Source: Candidatus Helarchaeota ASGARD archaeon Hel_GB_B
GTDB lineage: Archaea; Asgardarchaeota; Lokiarchaeia; Helarchaeales; HEL-GB-B
DNA length: 12,340 bases
Assembly: GCA_005191425.1 (NCBI GenBank)
Contig: SUPR01000098.1
Coordinates: 1 to 12,340, forward strand
Reading direction: 5' to 3'
The translations under genes were made by a program, and so were the position numbers. Under the pieces are notes generated by a model, which was not told where the DNA came from, did not search any database, and was given only the letters and a program-made list of their open reading frames with translations. The stretch's first letter is position 1, and every line of letters begins with the position of its first letter. Of the stretch, positions 1 through 11,099 are shown piece by piece.

Positions 1-210
1 TAAAATTATAACTCAAAATTTGAGGTCTATTAAATTTAAATTTATTAATAATATTTAAAGCGATTATATATGTTAAAAATAATTTATAATAAAATTAGAG
101 GAATTTTAAATAAAATTTCTTCATATTTTGGACCGTTATTGGTCTATACTCATTTAAACTTAACAATTAAAAATAAAATACATCAAATAGAATTTTAAAA
201 TTATAAAAAC

Positions 211-217
211 AGGTTGA
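211..217 (+). promoter_or_regulatory. Shine-Dalgarno-like site for the ABC ATPase
   Basis: AGGTTGA, a one-base-insertion variant of archaeal AGGTGA, ending 7 nt before ATG 225. Confidence 0.45.
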
Positions 218-224
218 TATAAAA

Positions 225-1265
225 ATGGTAATTGCAAAAAAAGATAAAATTATTGATAATCCAATAAACTCCCATGAGAACAACAAACTTAATAACCGCG
301 TTGATGATAATTTAAAAATGAAATCTAATGGTGATTATATTAAGTCGTCCAATAATCTCAATAAAAAATATAAAAATGTTAATAATTTCAATATTAAAAT
401 TTCACTTAAAGATATTAAATTTACCTATAGAAATGGAATACATGCCTTAGATGATATTACATTCAATGTCGAAGCTGGGGATTTTATAGGAATAATTGGG
501 CCAAATGGGACTGGAAAATCTACCTTGCTAAGAATCCTGGACGGAATACTGAAACCTCAGGTTGGTACTATACTTATCCAAGGAAAAGAATTAAATAAAT
601 ACAAACTTAATGACCTCGCTAAAGTTATTGGATATATACCGCAGAACAGTGTATCAATTTTTCCCACTACAGTTTTTGATACAGTACTATTAGGTAGGAA
701 ACCATACATTGAATGGGGTAGTCCTACTAAGAAAGATATTAAAATAACCTCAGAAATTCTATACAAATTAGGTCTGGAAGAGATTGCAATGAGAAACATT
801 ACTGAGTTAAGTGGTGGACAATTGCAAAAAGTATTAATTGCAAGGACATTAGCCCAACAACCAGACATTATTTTATTGGACGAACCTACTTCTAACCTTG
901 ATATTAACCACCAATTAGAAGTATTAAATCTACTCCGACAGGAAACTAAAAAAAATATTACAGTCATTATCGCAATTCATGACTTAAATTTAGCGATTAA
1001 ATTTTGTAATAAGTTCATAATATTAAATAATGGAAAAATTGAAGCAATTGGCGGTAAAGAAGTTATTTCAAAATCTATTATTGAGAAAGTATTTAAGGTT
1101 CGGGTTAAAATTATTAATGATGGCACTGACTTATTTATTATACCAATGATATCTAATGAAAATGAAGAAGACGTTATTACTTTAGATATTATAAGTTATG
1201 ATGAAAAAATTAATGGAAATACTAAAGAAAAAATTGAAAAAGAAGATATATTTACCGTTCAATAA
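225..1265 (+). CDS. ABC transporter ATP-binding subunit, iron-complex/cobalamin (FepC/FecE/BtuD-like) family, with low-complexity N-terminal and acidic C-terminal extensions
   Basis: Walker A GPNGTGKST, Q-loop IGYIPQ, family-typical TVFDTVLLGRKPY, signature LSGGQLQK, Walker B ILLDEPTSNLD, H-switch AIHDLNLA. SD-like AGGTTGA at 211-217 precedes ATG 225. Confidence 0.93.
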   Translation: MVIAKKDKIIDNPINSHENNKLNNRVDDNLKMKSNGDYIKSSNNLNKKYKNVNNFNIKISLKDIKFTYRNGIHALDDITFNVEAGDFIGIIGPNGTGKSTLLRILDGILKPQVGTILIQGKELNKYKLNDLAKVIGYIPQNSVSIFPTTVFDTVLLGRKPYIEWGSPTKKDIKITSEILYKLGLEEIAMRNITELSGGQLQKVLIARTLAQQPDIILLDEPTSNLDINHQLEVLNLLRQETKKNITVIIAIHDLNLAIKFCNKFIILNNGKIEAIGGKEVISKSIIEKVFKVRVKIINDGTDLFIIPMISNENEEDVITLDIISYDEKINGNTKEKIEKEDIFTVQ

Positions 1266-1267
1266 AT

Positions 1268-1273
1268 AGGAGG
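1268..1273 (+). promoter_or_regulatory. Shine-Dalgarno site for the TsaA-FmdE gene
   Basis: AGGAGG 9 nt upstream of the TTG start at 1283, inside a 17-nt intergenic gap; supports an operon with the ATPase. Confidence 0.75.
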
Positions 1274-1282
1274 AAATATAAA

Positions 1283-2413
1283 TTGGTCGAAATTACTCAG
1301 ATTGGAATTGTAGTTAATGAAGTTAAAGAGCCAATGGACCCTTTTAAATTTGAAAATGTTATCTCGAAAATAGTCGTTGACAAAAAATATGAAGACGGAC
1401 TATTCAACCTTGATAAAAATGAATATATTCAAGTAATATATTATTTTCATAAATCTCCAACACCTAAAAAATTAATTGGGACTTCATATTTTGGGTCTAA
1501 AGAGGGGGTCTTTGCTACAAGAAGTCCAATAAGGCCCGGAGCCGTTGGACTTTCTACCGCAAAGTTAATTAAAATCCAAAAAAATGAGGTTATAGTTAAA
1601 GGTTTGGACGCAATTGATGGAACACCTGTTCTTGACATTAAACCGTATACCCCCACACTTGATGAAAAAGAAATTTCAAGAATAAAAAAAGAGATAGATT
1701 ATAATAATTTAAAGAGAGACCTCTGGCCCTTAATAAGAAACTGGGACTTAGAACCAATATTACATGAAGCAGCAAAACTTCATGGACATTATTGCTCAGG
1801 GCTGGCAATGGGCGTCATGATGGGTTCCTATGCCATGAAAAAACTGGGTTCATTTGGGTTTTCTGATGGAATGGAAAATATAATTGCAATTGTTGAAATG
1901 AACCATTGTGCAGTTGATGGTATTCAATATACAACAGGTTGCACTTTTGGAAATAATGCCTTAATATTTAGAGACCTCGGTAAAACTGCATTATCATTGC
2001 TAAAAAGGACAGATACTTCATGTAAAGGAATTAGAATATCTTTGAAACCAATCCCCTGGGAATCACTCTCGGAAAATCAGCCAGAATTAAATGAACTTTT
2101 TGATAAGGTCGTCAAATATAGAAATGGTACCCCTAAAGATTTAAAACGTCTTAAAGAATTGATGCGATTAAATTCATTGGCATTTATCAAACGAAAATTT
2201 GAAGATACCTTTAACGTAGAGAATATCACTATCCCAAATCAACCATGGGCATCTATTAAAGAAAGCGTCAAATGTGAGAAATGCGGAGAATTAATAATGA
2301 AATCCAGGACTGTAAATATCAATGGGAAAGTTTTATGCCTTAAATGCTCTAATACTAGCTTCTACGAAGTTTCAGGGAATGGTATTCAAAAAATAGATTG
2401 GAACTCTCTTTAA
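1283..2413 (+). CDS. Fusion protein: N-terminal TsaA/TrmO(YaeB)-like SAM-binding domain + FmdE (formylmethanofuran dehydrogenase subunit E-like) domain + C-terminal CxxC...CxxC zinc finger
   Basis: aa1-122 carry GVFATRSPIRP and GLDAIDGTPVLDIKPY (TsaA hallmark). From about aa160: HGHYCSGLAMG and EMNHCAVDGIQYTTGCTFGNN..FRDLGKTA (FmdE hallmark). C331-x2-C334 and C352-x2-C355 form the finger. TTG start with SD. Confidence 0.9.
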   Translation: MVEITQIGIVVNEVKEPMDPFKFENVISKIVVDKKYEDGLFNLDKNEYIQVIYYFHKSPTPKKLIGTSYFGSKEGVFATRSPIRPGAVGLSTAKLIKIQKNEVIVKGLDAIDGTPVLDIKPYTPTLDEKEISRIKKEIDYNNLKRDLWPLIRNWDLEPILHEAAKLHGHYCSGLAMGVMMGSYAMKKLGSFGFSDGMENIIAIVEMNHCAVDGIQYTTGCTFGNNALIFRDLGKTALSLLKRTDTSCKGIRISLKPIPWESLSENQPELNELFDKVVKYRNGTPKDLKRLKELMRLNSLAFIKRKFEDTFNVENITIPNQPWASIKESVKCEKCGELIMKSRTVNINGKVLCLKCSNTSFYEVSGNGIQKIDWNSL

Positions 2414-2548: not shown

Positions 2549-3460
2549 TCAATGTCTATAGTCTAAAAAATCTGGACTATCAAAGTCATTACTTTCTTCA
2601 TCATTTTCCTCATCGCCGCCACCTAAATCAGTCCAATGTTCATAACAACTCAATGCAAATTCCATATCACCTAATTTTTCCAACATTTCACCTTGTAATA
2701 GCCACACTTCCTTATTTTCTGGTTCCAAAGATAATAACTCCATAAAACATTTAACCGCTTCTTCCAAATCACCTGAAATCTTAAGAAGAATACCTTCTGC
2801 ATACAAGGATTTTATATCTTCAGGCTTTATTTTTAATGCCTCTTCAAAACACTCAATAGCTCTATCTATATAAAATAATTTTGCTAATGTGATCCCCTTA
2901 TTATACCAACCATCTACAAATCTTGGGTTTATATCTAAAGATTTTTCAAAACATTCCAATGCCCCATCTAAATTCCCAGATTTTCCTAATACAATACCCT
3001 TACCACACCATGCTCTAAAATTTTTGTCATTAATACTCAAACATCGGTTATAACAATGAAACGCCTGTTCCCATTCACTTAATTCTTCAAATACTACACC
3101 TTTATTAAACCACCCATCTTCAGATTCAGAATTTAACTCTAATACTCTATCATAACATTCCAACTCCTTCTTATATTCTTTCAACATCCCATAACCATAA
3201 CCCAAATTATTCCAAGCATCTATCAGCTCAGGGTCAATTTCCAGGACTTTTTTAAAACAAAAGATTAATTTATCCCATTTTTTTAATTTTTTATAAATCA
3301 ATGCTAAATTTTTCCAATTTATAACATTTTTATCATCTAGATTTACTGCTTGTTCCAAACATTTCTCTGCCTCAGATAGATCCCCTTTTAAATAACATAT
3401 ATACCCTAAAGCACTTAAATTATCTACTTTTTCATCTTTAGAAAATTTTTTACCATTCAT
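2549..3460 (-). CDS. Tetratricopeptide repeat (TPR) protein with acidic C-terminal tail
   Basis: About 7-8 consecutive 34-aa repeats of the type W.NLG.....L.EY..A..CY...L...P (e.g. AWNNLGYGYGMLKEYKKELECYDRVLELN). Tail GGGDEENDEESNDFDSPDFLDYRH. AGGTGA SD upstream. Confidence 0.92.
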   Translation of the reverse strand: MNGKKFSKDEKVDNLSALGYICYLKGDLSEAEKCLEQAVNLDDKNVINWKNLALIYKKLKKWDKLIFCFKKVLEIDPELIDAWNNLGYGYGMLKEYKKELECYDRVLELNSESEDGWFNKGVVFEELSEWEQAFHCYNRCLSINDKNFRAWCGKGIVLGKSGNLDGALECFEKSLDINPRFVDGWYNKGITLAKLFYIDRAIECFEEALKIKPEDIKSLYAEGILLKISGDLEEAVKCFMELLSLEPENKEVWLLQGEMLEKLGDMEFALSCYEHWTDLGGGDEENDEESNDFDSPDFLDYRH

Positions 3461-4044: not shown

Positions 4045-6726
4045 ATGAAAAATAGAGAGTTATTCTTTCTGGGCATTGCAGATATGTCTGGTATGATTTT
4101 AATGACTGCAATAATTTTTCACTATCAAAATTATTATATCAATACATTGTTTGTAGGCAATTCTTATGCTTATTTATTAGGATTTCTTGTCCCGACTATC
4201 AGTCTCTTTATTGGTGCTTTTGCATATCCAATTAGTGGATATTTTAGCGATAGGTTATCTACTAGGTTTGGTAGACGTCGACCATTCTTTTTTCTTGCAA
4301 TTCCGGGTGGTATTAGTTTTGGACTTGTTTCTATGCCTATGTTTGTCCAAATAGGTATCAATTTTTCAAATAACTTCTTAAGTGGCTATATTTTCATCTT
4401 GACCTTTTATATTTTATTTGTAAGCTGCTGGAGATTTGTTCAGTGCCCATTTCTTGCTTTATTTGTAGATGTAACAAAACCCGAAGAACAGATTAAAGCT
4501 TCGATTTTTCTGAACATGTGTGATATTGCAGGCACTTTGATTGGAATTGGTATCCCGCTAATTCTAGATTTAAGCATTATAAAAGGGTACTTAACGCCCA
4601 TTTTCGGCTATTATAATGCAATCGAATTTTCTGGTTATTTATTTGGACTTATTTACATTATTTCATTTATTTTAGCCTTTTTCTTTGGACCTAAAGAAGA
4701 TATTGAATTACTTAAAAAGAATAAAAATAAGAATACCAAAGATGATAACTTTCTAAAAGCATTAAAAGAAATTCTTACAATTCCAGCTCTACGAAATTAT
4801 ATTATTTCTGCGTTTTTCTATGTATTTTGTTTTAATATTGCAATTTATTATCTAATGCCCTATTTAAATAGCCTTGGATTAAGTTCGTCAGATATAATAA
4901 TTTACGCAATTCCCTTGTTTCTAGCTATAATAATTTTGTTTTTTGTTTTTTCTAAGATCTCCAAATCATGGGGTAAAATCAAAACATTCAGAATAAGCCT
5001 CCTTTGGGGCGCCGTAGGTACCCCATTCTTGCTGGTGATTGGAGTAACTAATATCGGACCGCTTTCAATCATGGACCAATTAGTTATACTTTTTATAATT
5101 CTATCCGGTAGTATTGTCGGTATGTTAATTTTCCAATACGCAATCTTAATGGACCTCGGTAAATTAGTACCACTTAAAGAATCTACTTTCGTGGGCGTTT
5201 ACTCGTCTATTATCGTATTTTCGCAGCCCCTTTCCACATTCGCCTTAAGCTTTTTAACCCAATATTTAAACCCAATAAATATCTGGATTTGGAATGGAAA
5301 CCTCGGCTACGCTTCAATCGGTATTGTTATGGGAATTGGATTCCTTATAAGCTACTTTTTTATGAAAAAAGTAAACTACGAAACTCAAACTGCACCCGAA
5401 AACTCCGAAAACCCCGAAAACCCTAAAAATTCCGAAAACTCCAATAATCTCAATCATAATATTGATGAACAGTTTAAATCAAAAATTGATAACTTGACCA
5501 ATAATAAGAGCCCTATTAAACACATTAAAAAATTGGATTATCCACGCCTGTGTGGCACTCCCGGAGAAAAAAATGGCGTTAATTATATAACTTCTGTTTT
5601 AGACTCAGTCGATTTCCATTATAAAATTGAAGAATTCCCCGTACCAAAATCCTCCAAATTTAAAAAGATATTATTACCTCTCCTTGTAATTGTCTGGGGA
5701 ATAATAAGTCTTTATAATGTGTTTTTTATTTCAGGAACTTTTGAATTAATAATAGCAATTATAATCTTGATAGTACCACTATCTTTAATTATTATCCTCG
5801 TCTTTTTAAATAAGCTCTTTAAATTCATACTCAAAGGTTATTATTTGAAAATTAAAAAATTGGAAAAAAAATTGCAATTTGACCGGACTCGCTCAATAAA
5901 TATTAAATTTGGAAAAAATATTATCGCCGATTATTCGCCACAAAAACCAAAAGGACATATCATCTTTACTGCTCACCATGATAGCATCTCATTATTAATT
6001 GGCAATATGAAATTACTCACAGTCCTTGGAGCTATTTCTATTGTTTCATTATTTATTTATAGTATAGCCTATTTTCTCCATTACCTGTTTATCGTGCTTA
6101 ATATACCTATTAATTTATTCGGACAATTCCCGGTCCTTTTTATTATTATCTTGCTATCCTTCTTGATACCTATATCTATACTCTTAACTATCCGGGCATT
6201 TAGGTCAAATAAATCCCATGGCTCTATTGACGATATGACAGGTACCAGCATATTGCTAGAACTATCCAAAATCATCAAGGAGATAAATCCTCCTTTTAAA
6301 ATTACCCTGGCTTTCTTCTCAGGTGAAGAATTGGGCCTTCTAGGCTCCGGGTTCCATTACTATAACAATTCCGATCTATATAACGATACAACACTTATTT
6401 CGGTGGACATGATTGGTGAAATTAGCCCTCTTTCTATTGTTAAATCAGTTAGCCCTATTTTGCCCGCAAAAATGGACCAAAGTTTGAACGAATTATTCTC
6501 TTGTATTGCTGATAAACTCGGTATCAAATTAAAGAAAATCAAATTTCTATATCCTGGGTCAGATTTTGCTCATTGGCTCCTAAATAATAAGTCCACTACA
6601 TGGATCATTAACCCAAGTAAATACATCCATACACCAAAAGATGTGCCTAACAATGTTAATATCGAACTTTTGAATAATTGCTTAAAATTAATAACTGGCT
6701 TTTTACTAGAAAAAACTAAAGATTAA
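4045..6726 (+). CDS. Fusion: 12-TM MFS transporter (GPH/MFS_2-like) + low-complexity linker + M28-family zinc metallopeptidase/hydrolase with four inserted TM helices
   Basis: aa1-443: 12 hydrophobic segments and MFS motif A GYFSDRLSTRFGRRRPF. aa493-893: YPRLCGTPGE, AHHDS (H644), GSIDDMTG (D730), FSGEELGLLGS (E761/E762), SVDMIG (D788), SDF, YIHTPKD (H862). One uninterrupted frame. Confidence 0.88.
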   Translation: MKNRELFFLGIADMSGMILMTAIIFHYQNYYINTLFVGNSYAYLLGFLVPTISLFIGAFAYPISGYFSDRLSTRFGRRRPFFFLAIPGGISFGLVSMPMFVQIGINFSNNFLSGYIFILTFYILFVSCWRFVQCPFLALFVDVTKPEEQIKASIFLNMCDIAGTLIGIGIPLILDLSIIKGYLTPIFGYYNAIEFSGYLFGLIYIISFILAFFFGPKEDIELLKKNKNKNTKDDNFLKALKEILTIPALRNYIISAFFYVFCFNIAIYYLMPYLNSLGLSSSDIIIYAIPLFLAIIILFFVFSKISKSWGKIKTFRISLLWGAVGTPFLLVIGVTNIGPLSIMDQLVILFIILSGSIVGMLIFQYAILMDLGKLVPLKESTFVGVYSSIIVFSQPLSTFALSFLTQYLNPINIWIWNGNLGYASIGIVMGIGFLISYFFMKKVNYETQTAPENSENPENPKNSENSNNLNHNIDEQFKSKIDNLTNNKSPIKHIKKLDYPRLCGTPGEKNGVNYITSVLDSVDFHYKIEEFPVPKSSKFKKILLPLLVIVWGIISLYNVFFISGTFELIIAIIILIVPLSLIIILVFLNKLFKFILKGYYLKIKKLEKKLQFDRTRSINIKFGKNIIADYSPQKPKGHIIFTAHHDSISLLIGNMKLLTVLGAISIVSLFIYSIAYFLHYLFIVLNIPINLFGQFPVLFIIILLSFLIPISILLTIRAFRSNKSHGSIDDMTGTSILLELSKIIKEINPPFKITLAFFSGEELGLLGSGFHYYNNSDLYNDTTLISVDMIGEISPLSIVKSVSPILPAKMDQSLNELFSCIADKLGIKLKKIKFLYPGSDFAHWLLNNKSTTWIINPSKYIHTPKDVPNNVNIELLNNCLKLITGFLLEKTKD
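5395..5439 (+). repeat. In-frame 9-bp tandem repeat x5 encoding (P/S)-(E/K)-N in the MFS-M28 linker
   Basis: cccgaaaac tccgaaaac cccgaaaac cctaaaaat tccgaaaac = PEN SEN PEN PKN SEN. Confidence 0.9.
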
Positions 6727-6916: not shown

Positions 6917-7786
6917 TTACTCAATTTGTTTATTTCGTATCTTTATGAATCTCCAAATAGTAATTACTATTGCTATACTCATTGTAACTCCAGCCCAAGG
7001 TAATGCATATTGAACACCATAAATAAAACTGTCTATTCCTTGAAATATTAGTGCCAGTAAATATGGAACAATTACATAAATTGTAGCCACCGATCTTTTA
7101 TTCTCTATTGTTTTAAAGTAAACTTGCCCTCTTTTTGTCAGCGACATATAAATACTAAATATTAAATAAATAAGTGCCGAAGTTTAAAACCAACCAAAAT
7201 AATTCATTAAAGGTATTCCGTAATAAAGACCACCTTCTGGCCAATACCAGTTCCCTCTCGCTACCATCACTGGGTCATTTATTAAATCCCATGACATCAT
7301 TATAGCTCCCGCTACCATCGATACCACATACAATTTGATAAATTTTTTCACTGAACCTATTCTCTCAAACTCCGACCGATTTTCACTTATTTTTCCAAAT
7401 ATTATGTTCGTCATTGAATACATACAATATATATATGTAAACCACGTTAAAGGAATTATATACGGCACCTTGTCCATAAACATTGGCCCTAAACTGGTCG
7501 TATAATGCCACTTACATCCTGGTATTAACCCTATAGCACCAATATATTCTAGCATTAATGTCAATGAATACGTTATCACTAAAAAAATCATTGTGTTCCA
7601 AATTCCTACCGTTTTTTTACCATGGACTATCGTAAACCCAAAAAATATTATTACTTCTATAAGCGTCAGCACCGTCTCCGAAATATTGAATAAAATCGTC
7701 CTCTTTAATATGAAGAATATTGTAGCTAATAATAATAATATCACAGAAACCAATTCATATTTATCTTTTAACATCTGATTAACCAT
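6917..7786 (-). pseudogene. cruF: CruF-family (carotenoid biosynthesis/hydratase-like) membrane protein interrupted by a single in-frame TAA at 7184-7186
   Basis: Motifs HG...G, LEYIG, Y..SLGP...KVPYIIPLTW, WDLINDP, W.W...G.YYGIPLMNYFGWF. Track ORFs 7184..7786 and 6917..7147 are in the same frame, joined by 12 open codons (TSALIYLIFSIY) after the TAA. The joined frame has 289 positions before the final stop. The symbol is family-level only. Confidence 0.8.
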
Positions 7787-8125: not shown

Positions 8126-9241
8126 ATGTTGCCAGGAAAGTATTTGGTATTAGGAGATATTGCTTGTGCAGAAGGTGCAATTTATGCTGGATGCAAATTA
8201 TTCGCAGGGTACCCAATAACTCCCGCAACGGAAATTGCAGAATACCTTTCAAGAAGATTACCTGAAGTTGGGGGTGATTTTTTACAAATGGAGGACGAAA
8301 TTGCATCATCTGCTGCAATAATTGGAGCATCATGGGCAGGTGTTAAGGCTATGACTGCTACATCAGGCCCTGGCTTTAGTTTAATGCAAGAGAATATTTC
8401 ATACGCATATCATACAGAAACACCTATTGTAATAGTTAATGTTCAAAGGTCTGGGCCATCTACTGGTCAAGCTACCTATCCAGCTCAACAAGAATTCTAT
8501 CAATCACGATATGGTGCTCACGGAGATTATGAATCAATTGTATTGTGTCCAAGTTCAGTACAAGAAACATTCGATATGACGATTCGATCTTTTAATTTGT
8601 CCGAACAATACAGAATACCCGTTATTTTACTAATGGACGGAGCAATTGGACATATGAGAGAAAAATTGGTCATCCCAAATCCTAAAAATCTAAATATTAT
8701 AAGACGAGTTTATATGGACGATAACTATACAGAGAATGGACTTGTTTTACCAATGGGTAAGTTTGGCTCCGGCCAAAAATTATTAATAACTGGGTCTGCT
8801 CACGAAATTTCCGGAAAAAGAAATTATACTCCTAAAGTCCATCAATCTACAATTAAACGTATTTGCTCGAAGATCCAAGCCAATAATGATATCATTGAAA
8901 TTGAGTCCTTTAATTTAGATGATGCAAATACAATTATTATTTCTTATGGAGTCTCAGCTAGACCGTCCTATGGCGCTATGTTAAATTTAAGGAAAAAAGG
9001 CGTAAAAATAGGGTTTATTCGATTAAAAACAATCTGGCCCTTCCCGGATACACTGCTTAGAAATTTGATCAATAATAATGTGCATTCCATTTTCGTTGTC
9101 GAAATGAATAATGGTATGGCTGTGCGAGAAGTAAGTCGAGTTATTAAAAATGCACAAGTTTTCAGTATATCCGTTCTGGGTGGGATCATCCCAAAAATTA
9201 AATATATCACCAAAAAAGTGGAGGAGATTATTTATGATTAA
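8126..9241 (+). CDS. korA: 2-oxoacid:ferredoxin oxidoreductase alpha subunit (KorA-like, gamma-less short alpha)
   Basis: AGYPITPATEIAE, QMEDEIAS, ATSGPGFSLMQE, VQRSGPSTG. Substrate specificity cannot be determined from sequence. Confidence 0.93.
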   Translation: MLPGKYLVLGDIACAEGAIYAGCKLFAGYPITPATEIAEYLSRRLPEVGGDFLQMEDEIASSAAIIGASWAGVKAMTATSGPGFSLMQENISYAYHTETPIVIVNVQRSGPSTGQATYPAQQEFYQSRYGAHGDYESIVLCPSSVQETFDMTIRSFNLSEQYRIPVILLMDGAIGHMREKLVIPNPKNLNIIRRVYMDDNYTENGLVLPMGKFGSGQKLLITGSAHEISGKRNYTPKVHQSTIKRICSKIQANNDIIEIESFNLDDANTIIISYGVSARPSYGAMLNLRKKGVKIGFIRLKTIWPFPDTLLRNLINNNVHSIFVVEMNNGMAVREVSRVIKNAQVFSISVLGGIIPKIKYITKKVEEIIYD

Positions 9242-10025
9242 TCTGATTAAAAAATATTCGCGATTTTTACCACATAAGTTTTGTCCTGGATGTGGAAATG
9301 GCATTATTCTTAATTGTTTTATGAGAGCTATAGATCAATTAGACATAGATCCGAATTCATATCTGTGCGTTTCTGGGATTGGGTGCTCTTCATGGATTCC
9401 AAGTCCATATCTGAATTTAGATACATTCCATACAGTCCATGGTAGAGCTATTGCTTATGCTACTGGTGCTAAAGTTGCCAATAAAAAGTTGAATGTCATT
9501 GTGTTCACTGGAGATGGCGATGGTGCTGGAATTGGCGGAAATCATTTGATTCATGCAGCTAGACGAAATATAAATTTAACTGTTTTTTTGATAAATAATT
9601 ACATTTATGGGATGACTGGCGGACAAATGGCACCTACTACTCCCAAAAACTCGATAACTTCAACCTCAGTTTTCGGGAGCCCGGAACGTCCTTTTGACCT
9701 CTGTGATTTGGTAAAGTCTGCAGGTGCTACATATATAGCTAGATGGAGTGTATTTCAGCCCCGACAACTAATTAAATCTATGAAAGAAGCTATATTACAT
9801 AAAGGATTTGCTTTTATTGAAATATTATCACCATGCCCAACTGAATTCGGAAGGAGAAATCAACTCTCAATTAAAGACTATCTTTCTCTTTTTGATCCGA
9901 AATCTTCTCGCGAAAAAAATAAATTTAAAACACCATTTGGAATTCTAGTTAAGAAAAAATCTCCAGAATTTTGTGATATTTTAGATCAAATAAAAAAAAT
10001 TGCTTCTAAAAAAGGTGATATCTAA
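9234..10025 (+). CDS. korB: 2-oxoacid:ferredoxin oxidoreductase beta subunit (TPP and 4Fe-4S binding)
   Basis: FCPGCG, GIGCS, HGRA, GDGDGAGIGGNHLIHAARRN, NNYIYGMTGGQMAPTTP, SPCPT. Start moved from the track's 9150 to ATG 9234, which has GGAGG at 9220-9224 and overlaps the korA stop by 8 nt. Confidence 0.93.
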   Translation: MINLIKKYSRFLPHKFCPGCGNGIILNCFMRAIDQLDIDPNSYLCVSGIGCSSWIPSPYLNLDTFHTVHGRAIAYATGAKVANKKLNVIVFTGDGDGAGIGGNHLIHAARRNINLTVFLINNYIYGMTGGQMAPTTPKNSITSTSVFGSPERPFDLCDLVKSAGATYIARWSVFQPRQLIKSMKEAILHKGFAFIEILSPCPTEFGRRNQLSIKDYLSLFDPKSSREKNKFKTPFGILVKKKSPEFCDILDQIKKIASKKGDI

Positions 10026-10026
10026 A

Positions 10027-10581
10027 TTGCTCAAATCAATTAAAATTATAGGCATGGGGGGACAAGGTATCATAAAAATTAGTTTAATACTCGCTGAATC
10101 TATTTTTGAAAAAGGTCTAAATGTAGTCCAAACTCAAACATATGGAGCAGAAGTCCGTCGAGGTGTAGTATCCGCTGATGTCACCTATGAAACACAAAAA
10201 GATACAGAGATTTATGATTTAAATGTTGATTTTTTTGATTATTTTTTAATAATGGCTAAAAATGGGTTTGAAAAATATAAGTCCATTATTAATAATTACT
10301 CTACTATTATTTTCTCAGATTCATTCTCCATCCCAATAAATGAATTAAATTTAAAATCGTGTATTAAATACGCTATTCCAGATTCAGATGTCATCTCTCA
10401 ACTCAAATTTAGATCATCCTTGAATATGTGTTATCTTGGTGCTCTCGCTAAGATTTGTCCAGATTTGGATATCGATATCTTAAAAAATATAATAACGAGA
10501 GAGAGCTCTAATAAATATCTGGACGATAATTTAGAATCTTTTCAAATTGGACTTGATATAATTAAAAAATATAATTCTTAA
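10027..10581 (+). CDS. korC: 2-oxoacid:ferredoxin oxidoreductase gamma subunit
   Basis: GMGGQG, VVQTQTYGAEVRRG, NMCYLGAL. Start moved from the track's 10000 to TTG 10027, preceded by AGGTGA at 10013-10018 and 1 nt after the korB stop. Confidence 0.88.
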   Translation: MLKSIKIIGMGGQGIIKISLILAESIFEKGLNVVQTQTYGAEVRRGVVSADVTYETQKDTEIYDLNVDFFDYFLIMAKNGFEKYKSIINNYSTIIFSDSFSIPINELNLKSCIKYAIPDSDVISQLKFRSSLNMCYLGALAKICPDLDIDILKNIITRESSNKYLDDNLESFQIGLDIIKKYNS

Positions 10582-11099
10582 TCAGACTTCGATACTCCCG
10601 ATACTCCCGATACTATACAACCTTTTTCCGTTAAATTATGGGAGAATTTTAATTCGGCTAAATTTGTTAAATATTCTCTGAATAATGAACGACAATAAGT
10701 ACGACAATATAATTCTGGCGGATTTTCTAAACCAAATTTCTTAAACAATTTTTTCATTTCTTTTTTTAAAGGACACTTATCTATAGTTATTTTTATTCCA
10801 TCGGGTCTATCCTCAAATGTAACGTGAGACAATGGCAATATATATTGCAGACTTTCTATCACTCTTTTCATCAACATATTTCCAACTTGTTTTTGAGACA
10901 TAACCTTAACTGATTTAACTAAAGATCTTTTCAAGAACCCAAGTCTATAATTTGCACTCCATTCCGCCATTTTTTGGCCGTATTCAATTGGCTCATTTTC
11001 ACCATATTTTTCCGATAAATATTTGATTAATATAACATAATTTAACATTAGACTTTCCTTTGTAGATTCATACATTTCTTTAATACTAAAATTTTTCAT
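10578..11099 (-). CDS. V4R/ATC-hydrolase-clan-like small protein with four cysteines (putative metal/ligand-binding or sensory domain)
   Basis: Helical N-half, then ITIDKCPL...YCRTYC...KGCIV (C109, C132, C136, C161), the cysteine pattern typical of V4R-clan domains. GGAAGG SD-like upstream. 40-nt gap from the dehydrogenase gene. Confidence 0.6.
   Translation of the reverse strand: MKNFSIKEMYESTKESLMLNYVILIKYLSEKYGENEPIEYGQKMAEWSANYRLGFLKRSLVKSVKVMSQKQVGNMLMKRVIESLQYILPLSHVTFEDRPDGIKITIDKCPLKKEMKKLFKKFGLENPPELYCRTYCRSLFREYLTNLAELKFSHNLTEKGCIVSGVSGVSKSD
10590..10614 (-). repeat. In-frame 9-bp tandem repeat (about 2.8 copies) encoding VSGVSGVS
   Basis: Plus strand cgatactcc cgatactcc cgatact. 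Confidence 0.85.

Follow-up and report, generated by a model that had tools for sequence, protein, structure and literature searches.

We analysed a 12,340-bp stretch of DNA (hereafter the window) that makes up one whole contig (G000:C1) of an Asgard archaeal genome, and we propose that two genes near its start are the last two of a four-gene nickel uptake operon. The first (225-1265, plus strand, ATG start, 346 amino acids) encodes an ATP-binding cassette (ABC) ATPase, and the second, co-directional with it (1283-2413, plus strand, TTG start, 376 amino acids), a protein in which a TrmO/YaeB-like β-barrel is followed by an FmdE domain and a zinc ribbon, called here the fusion protein. In this reading, to which we give a probability of roughly 60%, the fusion protein is a cytoplasmic accessory that handles nickel and is not TrmO, the name under which most of its homologues are annotated in public databases. 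The genome (3.5 Mb, 30% GC, 93.7% complete, 182 contigs) has its closest protein matches in metagenome-assembled genomes labelled Helarchaeota or Promethearchaeota, both Asgard archaea. The proposal is carried by the importer genes that sister assemblies place upstream of the window, by a predicted operator for the regulator NikR in front of these genes and by the recurrence of the same gene set across distant phyla.

An importer operon interrupted by a contig break

The stop codon of the ATPase gene (TAA, 1263-1265) is separated from the start of the fusion gene by 17 nt (1266-1282), and because this short gap contains a Shine-Dalgarno-like motif (Table 1) the two genes are probably read from the same transcript. 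The TTG start of the fusion gene is backed by a homologue with 78% identity (P0004) that begins with MVEI at the same position. The next gene, encoding a tetratricopeptide repeat protein (2549-3460, minus strand), converges on the fusion gene, and the transcription unit therefore ends with the latter. An earlier note, made from the sequence of this DNA alone, had described a FepC/BtuD-type ATPase linked to a three-domain protein across a 17-nt gap with AGGAGG, a description with which open reading frames, Pfam and the sequence itself agree.

The best NCBIfam models for the ATPase are of the F420-0, heme, FecE and corrinoid types, all scoring far below their cut-offs. It is also the genome's top match to a hidden Markov model of fusion-linked ATPases (354 bits versus 234 for the next) and shares 66% identity with the ATPase of L010, the locus of a 78% relative. 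Two extensions, an Asn/Lys-rich one of 57 amino acids at the N-terminus (225-398) and another of about 45 amino acids at the C-terminus (1120-1262), are absent in most family members; the L010 ATPase has both of them, weakly conserved.

No gene for a FecCD permease or a Peripla_BP_2 binding protein turned up in genome searches of the window's own assembly, and blastn and tblastx detected no permease remnant in positions 1-224. Loss of the permease and the binding protein was considered and rejected on the basis of sister assemblies, which were found via members of the 90% cluster of the fusion protein. Four of them (L129, L130, L131 and L132) match the window at 95.8-99.2% identity, with alignments that begin at its first base, and share its downstream genes wherever their contigs reach that far. 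These alignments place the contig break at the stop codon of the permease gene, so that the apparent absence of importer genes is a contig break and no loss. Inspection of the upstream DNA, which the earlier note had advised, recovered both missing genes: in L129 (a contig of 157,935 bp), L130 and L131 a 363-amino-acid Peripla_BP_2 protein is followed by a 358-amino-acid FecCD permease, and the operon order is binding protein, permease, a 221-nt spacer, ATPase and fusion protein. Directly upstream of this operon in L129 (3193-6258) we observed Csx1-like, Csx3 and MJ1433-like genes.

The spacer that separates the permease gene from the ATPase gene may include an internal promoter. No significant RNA fold was detected in it (z-score -0.74), and no NikR box was found in window positions 1-400 with up to four mismatches allowed. 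The equivalent spacer of L010 has only 38 nt, and in most other lineages the genes are adjacent or overlapping. One assembly calls a 42-codon open reading frame inside the spacer (window 70-198).

Predicted nickel regulation around the operon and its relatives

In L129, L130 and L131 the operon is preceded by a predicted NikR operator, GTATTAC-N14-GTAATAC, a perfect 7+7 inverted repeat located 13 nt before the ATG of the binding-protein gene. This palindrome shows one symmetric change with respect to the NikR consensus GTGTTAC-N13/14-GTAACAC (Rodionov et al. 2004, PMC545781), and in L010 the same half-sites, with a different spacer between them, also stand 13 nt before the binding-protein gene. 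No nikR gene adjoins the operon; two are present elsewhere in the genome, one of them beside larB-larC, and the nickel genes of this genome further include LarB/C/E (the last larE-like), two NiFe hydrogenase large subunits and one CbiM/NikM. A genome-wide near-match to the NikR box (in contig C92) was discarded, being a direct repeat with no palindrome.

The neighbourhood of the fusion gene was surveyed at 80 species-representative loci collected among at least 525 confirmed relatives (counts are over 81 loci unless another total is given), with flanking open reading frames clustered without prior labels and the large clusters then named by Pfam. At 57 of the 67 informative loci, defined as those that have 3.3 kb or more of DNA ahead of the fusion gene, Peripla_BP_2, FecCD and ATPase genes stand directly before it on the same strand, which sustains the functional tie to a metal ABC importer that the earlier note had suspected. 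These 57 cassettes span ten phylum-level groups (Asgard, Thermoplasmatota, Thermococci/Methanofastidiosa, Halobacteria, Spirochaetota, Bacillota, Desulfobacterota/Myxococcota, Bipolaricaulota, Thermotogota and Bacteroidota), and of the 59 loci at which the gap between ATPase and fusion genes was measured, 48 have values from -50 to +69 nt. The NikR cluster is represented at 28 loci, LarB at nine, LarC at eight, LarE-like proteins at seven and the NiFe hydrogenase large subunit at six, and TonB-dependent receptors are found at 17, almost all of them in Bacteroidota. Altogether, a nickel marker (nikR, larB/C/E, NiFe-hydrogenase genes or a NikR box) is present within 8 kb at 41 of the 81 loci. 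A scan for NikR boxes in the regions that immediately precede nikR, receptor or binding-protein genes (3.3% of the sequence) gave 16 matches with two mismatches at most, against 0.21 expected and a maximum of 3 in 100 local shuffles.

The transporter itself varies among the surveyed loci. The fusion gene follows an Opp/Nik-type fused double ATPase at L020, ABC-3 permeases with nikR adjacent at L017 and L022, and the set larE-larB-larC-nikR with no importer upstream at L049. The constant partner is therefore nickel regulation and use and not one transporter class, and this variety of importers speaks against a role in which a single imported chelate, for example a corrinoid, is processed. Among Asgard archaea, the representative of the same genus (G001, loci L011-L014) carries a fusion protein 57% identical to that of the window that stands alone with no transporter. 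As the 78% relative has the full operon, the copies in Asgard archaea seem to belong to separate lineages, either paralogous or acquired by transfer.

These data also bear on whether the fusion protein could be the accessory of an importer for another metal species, be it a corrinoid, an iron-siderophore or haem, cobalt or a Mo/W-related cofactor. Consistent with such a role are the F420-0, haem, FecE and corrinoid types of the best ATPase models together with the BtuC type found among the best permease models, the half of the loci in which no nickel marker was seen, the first description of FmdE in Mo/W formylmethanofuran dehydrogenase operons and the formyltransferase (FTR) gene that adjoins the L010 operon. 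However, the permease scores, like those of the ATPase, are far below the cut-offs, a search of 12 sources, the window and 11 related loci, returned no riboswitch of the cobalamin or any other class (Rfam, gathering thresholds), and fmd/fwd catalytic genes are absent from the window and the sister loci. NikR boxes and genes are, in addition, strongly enriched, with one box before the organism's own operon, and the fusion gene also accompanies ABC-3 and Opp/Nik-type importers and larBCE-nikR. We therefore regard a cargo other than nickel as unlikely. Among the imported metal complexes that the earlier note had listed, nickel gained support from the operator and from the nikR, larBCE and NiFe-hydrogenase genes elsewhere, whereas corrinoid, iron and Mo/W cofactors were disfavoured by the lack of cobalamin riboswitches and fmd/fwd genes in the sources given above and by the ABC-3 and Opp/Nik-type importers.

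The closest known importer is NiuBDE (CeuE/FecDE), which brings nickel into gastric Helicobacter under the control of NikR and of the metallochaperone SlyD (PMC5140060, PMC7840056). The resemblance, which for the archaeal operon is predicted from sequence, resides in an ABC nickel importer of the FecCD/Peripla_BP_2 class, a link to NikR and a cytoplasmic nickel-binding partner. Here, in contrast to SlyD, the partner is of an unrelated fold and its gene is part of the operon. The lineage's binding protein (L010:6713-7804) is, moreover, far closer to the uncharacterised TM0189 of Thermotoga maritima (PDB 2ETV; a strong match, 2e-91) than to the CeuE-type proteins. TM0189 was deposited as a putative iron(III)-binding protein, a label that may be wrong if this importer lineage carries nickel; searches of the literature on 2ETV/TM0189 returned nothing useful.

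The Helicobacter system also brings to mind a different role, in which the fusion protein would regulate or sense the importer post-translationally, binding nickel and perhaps S-adenosylmethionine (AdoMet) and then, like SlyD acting on NiuD in Helicobacter pylori, gating the transporter. That precedent of metallochaperone control over a FecCD-type nickel importer (PMC7840056), the tight coupling of the fusion gene to the ATPase gene in the measured loci and the frequent use of treble-clef zinc fingers as protein-docking modules are in agreement with regulation, but the fusion protein is also found with no importer nearby and we consider this role quite improbable.

Architecture of the fusion protein and its predicted metal site

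The segments of the fusion protein are listed in Table 1. Conservation of its residues was scored over 120 fusion homologues, in which the motifs HGHxC (H167, H169, C171) and NxCxxD (N207, C209, D212) and the four cysteines of the ribbon are invariant, and G219 and C220 of the GCT motif are at least 90% conserved. All the motifs quoted in the earlier note (RPGAVGLS, HGHxC, NHCxxD, GCT and the 4-Cys finger) were located in the sequence, and it was also right in stating that FmdE takes the place of TrmO's C-terminal domain, as no such domain is present and FmdE comes after a helical linker. RPGAVGLS occupies residues 84-91, the equivalent of RPNPIGL in the archaeal TrmO/YaeB protein AF0241. At the position of the AF0241 Asn most of the fusion family has Ser (RPSxIG), Gly being specific to a small lineage (P0001, P0004 and P0005).

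An AlphaFold2 (AF2) model of the fusion protein, built from the alignment of the 120 homologues, reached a pLDDT of 92.8 and a pTM of 0.87, and Foldseek searches with it matched only 2NV4, 2GVI, TrmO structures, 2GLZ and 3D00. The barrel superposes on 2NV4 with a TM-score of 0.85 (normalised to the target), an rmsd of 2.0 and 34% identity, and the FmdE part matches 2GVI with a Foldseek TM-score of 0.72 (normalised to the target). In the alignments, a predicted His2Cys2 site formed by H167, H169, C171 and C209 corresponds to His16, His18, Cys20 and Cys61 of TA1109 (2GVI) and to His15, His17, Cys19 and Cys55 of the 2GLZ protein, and the ribbon aligns with the zinc-finger domain of 2GVI.

The three solved FmdE structures contain a solvent-accessible tetrahedral His-His-Cys-Cys site, which was occupied by a Zn/Ni mixture in one protein and by Zn in a second (Axelrod et al. 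2010, PMC2954224). According to the same work, most members of the family adjoin metal transporters, only 13 of 208 are found in a formylmethanofuran dehydrogenase context, and the PF01980-FmdE fusion was listed as an unsolved architecture (PMC2954224). More than 800 proteins keep that two-domain architecture. The fusion protein has in common with TA1109 (2GVI), Dhaf_2992 (2GLZ) and SYN_00638 (3D00) the alpha+beta core, HGHxC with the distal Cys and a C-terminal treble-clef zinc finger, and differs from them in its extra N-terminal TrmO-like barrel and in having no adjoining formylmethanofuran dehydrogenase genes.

HypA-type metallochaperones are small cytoplasmic proteins that likewise unite a nickel site with a structural Cys4 zinc ribbon. 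The fusion protein would follow the same logic with no relation to HypA in sequence or fold; HypA lacks a domain of the AdoMet type, and its gene accompanies those for hydrogenase maturation.

Divergence of the barrel from TrmO

The barrel of the fusion protein shows the same single-sheet fold as the TrmO/YaeB proteins (E. coli b0195, P. aeruginosa 7BTU and AF0241, the last solved with AdoMet in 2NV4), and shares with them the RSPxRP loop, GLDxxDGTP, DIKPY and the Arg, Asp and Lys that serve as AdoMet ligands in AF0241. It differs in the replacement of Gln by Pro and of the Asn of RPN as described above, in being followed by FmdE and a zinc ribbon instead of a DPRxxY domain, in its separate phylogenetic position and in its metal-uptake operon. 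AdoMet is held by Gln22, Arg82, Asp111 and Lys122 in AF0241, and by Q25, R92, D125 and K136 in E. coli (Kimura et al. 2014, PMC4132733). A phmmer alignment to 2NV4 maps the AF0241 ligands to P20, R80, D109 and K120. Of these, the last three, equivalent to the ligands of the AdoMet carboxylate and amino groups in AF0241, are at least 90% conserved among the fusions, as is the RSPxRP loop, and P20 is a conserved Pro of the fusion family within a DPF that replaces PRQG.

A maximum-likelihood tree was built from 51 barrel domains, including 29 stand-alone Asgard TrmO-like domains and, as the single validated TrmO, that of E. coli. Fusion barrels form a clade of their own (support 100/98) apart from E. 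coli TrmO and from the stand-alone Asgard TrmO-like domains, which provides the comparison of the domain with validated TrmO proposed in the earlier note, with one such enzyme in the tree. A second TrmO-like gene of the same genome (G000:C153:16178-16891, equal to L006:1222-1935; 237 amino acids) falls on the E. coli side with weak support (89/61). Its product carries an unexplained N-terminal extension of 93 amino acids, its gene adjoins that of a triple-PAS protein, and orthologues of 260-264 amino acids occur in other Asgard genomes. A fusion-length frame was found in only three of 31 related Asgard genomes, in which stand-alone TrmO-like genes are common. One stand-alone barrel placed inside the fusion clade (L114) was set aside for its long branch and non-metal context. 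Six stand-alone FmdE-ribbon proteins close to the clade were noted as possible split forms, and the one context examined was uninformative.

Can the fusion protein nonetheless be a genuine N6-methyltransferase of tRNA N6-threonylcarbamoyladenosine at position 37 (t6A37), with FmdE and the ribbon replacing the RNA-binding C-terminal domain? Its match to TrmO_N is clear, the prevailing public annotation is TrmO and zinc ribbons can bind nucleic acid. Yet it scores 90.0 bits with the TrmO equivalog model of NCBIfam (TIGR00104), below the cut-off of 93.25, and Pfam and the sequence reveal no DPRxxY domain or motif, which in E. coli is required for the formation of N6-methyl-t6A (m6t6A; PMC4132733). 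The change of Gln to Pro, the separate clade, the second TrmO-like gene and the metal-uptake context of the operon point in the same direction. Furthermore, archaeal tRNA is not known to contain m6t6A, and the YaeB paralogues of archaea may act on other targets (PMC4132733). Because of the sub-cut-off score, the missing DPRxxY, the lost Gln, the position in the tree and the additional paralogue, the fusion protein is probably not TrmO, as the earlier note had anticipated, and activity on tRNA would come to us as a considerable surprise.

A possible catalytic role deserves separate consideration, since the fusion protein might be no passive carrier and instead a new kind of nickel-processing enzyme, in which the target of a class VIII AdoMet-binding barrel would be a ligand or the metal at the His2Cys2 site of FmdE. 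Transfer of a methyl or aminocarboxypropyl group onto a ligand at the metal/Cys site might generate or alter a chelator of nickel or the precursor of a nickel cofactor, and such an enzyme might also strip a chelator or prepare nickel for insertion into a cofactor. The conservation of three of the four AF0241 ligands and of the RSPxRP loop, the close superposition on AF0241 with AdoMet and the persistence of the barrel-FmdE fusion in so many proteins speak in favour of this, as does the unexplained ligand 1.8 Å from the distal, conserved Cys61 in the Zn-holding structure of TA1109, the counterpart of C209 here (PMC2954224). On the other hand, the Gln that binds the AdoMet amino group has been replaced by Pro, and no exporter or other biosynthetic gene accompanies the cassette in the surveyed loci. 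We view the transfer chemistry, though the foremost of the alternatives, as rather unlikely, and the wider idea of a nickel-processing enzyme as equally so.

A model of nickel handling

Returning to the fusion protein as a nickel-handling accessory of the importer, a sequence of events can be proposed. When nickel is scarce NikR would leave its operator and the importer would bring in nickel, probably as a small complex, while the fusion protein would be translated just downstream of the ATPase gene. Its FmdE domain would take Ni(II) at the solvent-exposed site formed by His167, His169, Cys171 and Cys209, with the Cys4 ribbon serving as a structural zinc site or a docking module. As the three residues holding the amino-acid end of AdoMet are kept, the TrmO-like barrel probably binds AdoMet or another ligand bearing an α-amino acid, which could be a cofactor, a signal or the spent chelator. 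Nickel would then be handed to client systems, and the genome has NiFe hydrogenases and LarB/C/E. We infer all four central steps, namely the import of nickel, the binding of Ni(II) at the FmdE site, the barrel ligand and the hand-over.

Several observations weigh against this model. The metal specificity is deduced from gene context, the NikR box is a prediction from sequence, and rough window scans identified no such box upstream of the genome's other nickel genes. Forty of the 81 loci have no nickel marker within 8 kb and only two of the seven Asgard loci have one, while some homologues (L011-L014, L019, L076 and L081) stand alone with no transporter at all. The sites of the solved FmdE proteins held mainly zinc (PMC2954224). 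A spacer of 221 nt could mean that the ATPase and fusion genes are expressed separately from the genes upstream, and a pure chaperone leaves a conserved and almost intact AdoMet pocket unexplained. Literature searches on FmdE with TsaA, TrmO, NikR, YaeB or nickel found no characterisation of, or experiment on, any member of the fusion family.

Features of the window and neighbouring genes

Table 1. Positions of the operon elements and fusion protein segments within the window.
Feature	Position	Strand	Evidence
TAA stop codon of the upstream FecCD permease gene; contig break exactly here	1-3	+	Sister alignments
AT-rich spacer of 221 nt, permease to ATPase	4-224	+	Identical in L129, conserved in sister assemblies
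ABC ATPase, type II importer (FecE/FepC/BtuD class)	225-1265	+	Pfam ABC_tran, 7.5e-35
AGGAGG, Shine-Dalgarno-like motif	1269-1274	+	8 nt before the fusion TTG, read in sequence
TrmO/YaeB-like β-barrel, residues 1-127	1283-1663	+	Pfam TrmO_N residues 17-127, 9.6e-29, 100.4 bits
Helical linker, residues 128-165 (P143 and R144 near-invariant)	1664-1777	+	Conservation, AF2 model
FmdE domain, residues 166-310	1778-2212	+	Pfam FmdE, 3e-34
Cys4 zinc ribbon/treble clef (C331, C334, C352, C355)	2273-2347	+	Pfam zf-dskA_traR 331-355, 4.3e-07
C-terminal β-hairpin tail ExxGxGI (G365 and G367 invariant) and stop codon	2348-2413	+	Conservation, AF2 model

Downstream of the operon the window encodes a fusion of a major facilitator superfamily transporter with an M28 peptidase domain (4045-6726, plus strand, 893 amino acids), which sister assemblies keep (888 amino acids), and a 200-amino-acid membrane protein resembling Caroten_synth/CruF (7184-7786, minus strand; PF04240, 1.6e-29), in this case in an Asgard genome. 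Because sister assemblies call the latter protein at 285-289 amino acids, its start may lie further upstream. Three genes at 8126-10581 (plus strand) encode the alpha, beta and gamma subunits of a 2-oxoacid:ferredoxin oxidoreductase; the longest open reading frame for beta (from 9150) overlaps alpha, and sister assemblies have a beta of 263 amino acids that starts near the end of alpha. Finally, a frame of 173 amino acids with no Pfam or NCBIfam match (10578-11099, minus strand) is a conserved called gene of 170 amino acids in sister assemblies.

Implications for nickel supply in anaerobes

FmdE (PF02663) and the archaeal-type YaeB/TrmO paralogues have been without a known role since 2010 and 2014, respectively, and both are now tied to predicted nickel uptake. 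In hundreds of genomes the fusion protein is annotated either as TrmO or as subunit E of formylmethanofuran dehydrogenase, and both names are probably wrong for it. To this the window contributes an Asgard instance of the cassette, the resolution of a contig-break artefact and a predicted operator conserved in two Asgard lineages. In anaerobes, Asgard archaea included, the supply of nickel limits hydrogenases, carbon monoxide dehydrogenase/acetyl-CoA synthase, F430 enzymes and nickel-pincer enzymes, and a cytoplasmic nickel acceptor coupled to the importer would be a missing piece of the nickel supply chain. Should the fusion protein turn out to be a nickel-processing enzyme, it would represent an unrecognised step of nickel trafficking common to many anaerobic archaea and bacteria, and the first function for FmdE proteins and archaeal YaeB paralogues.

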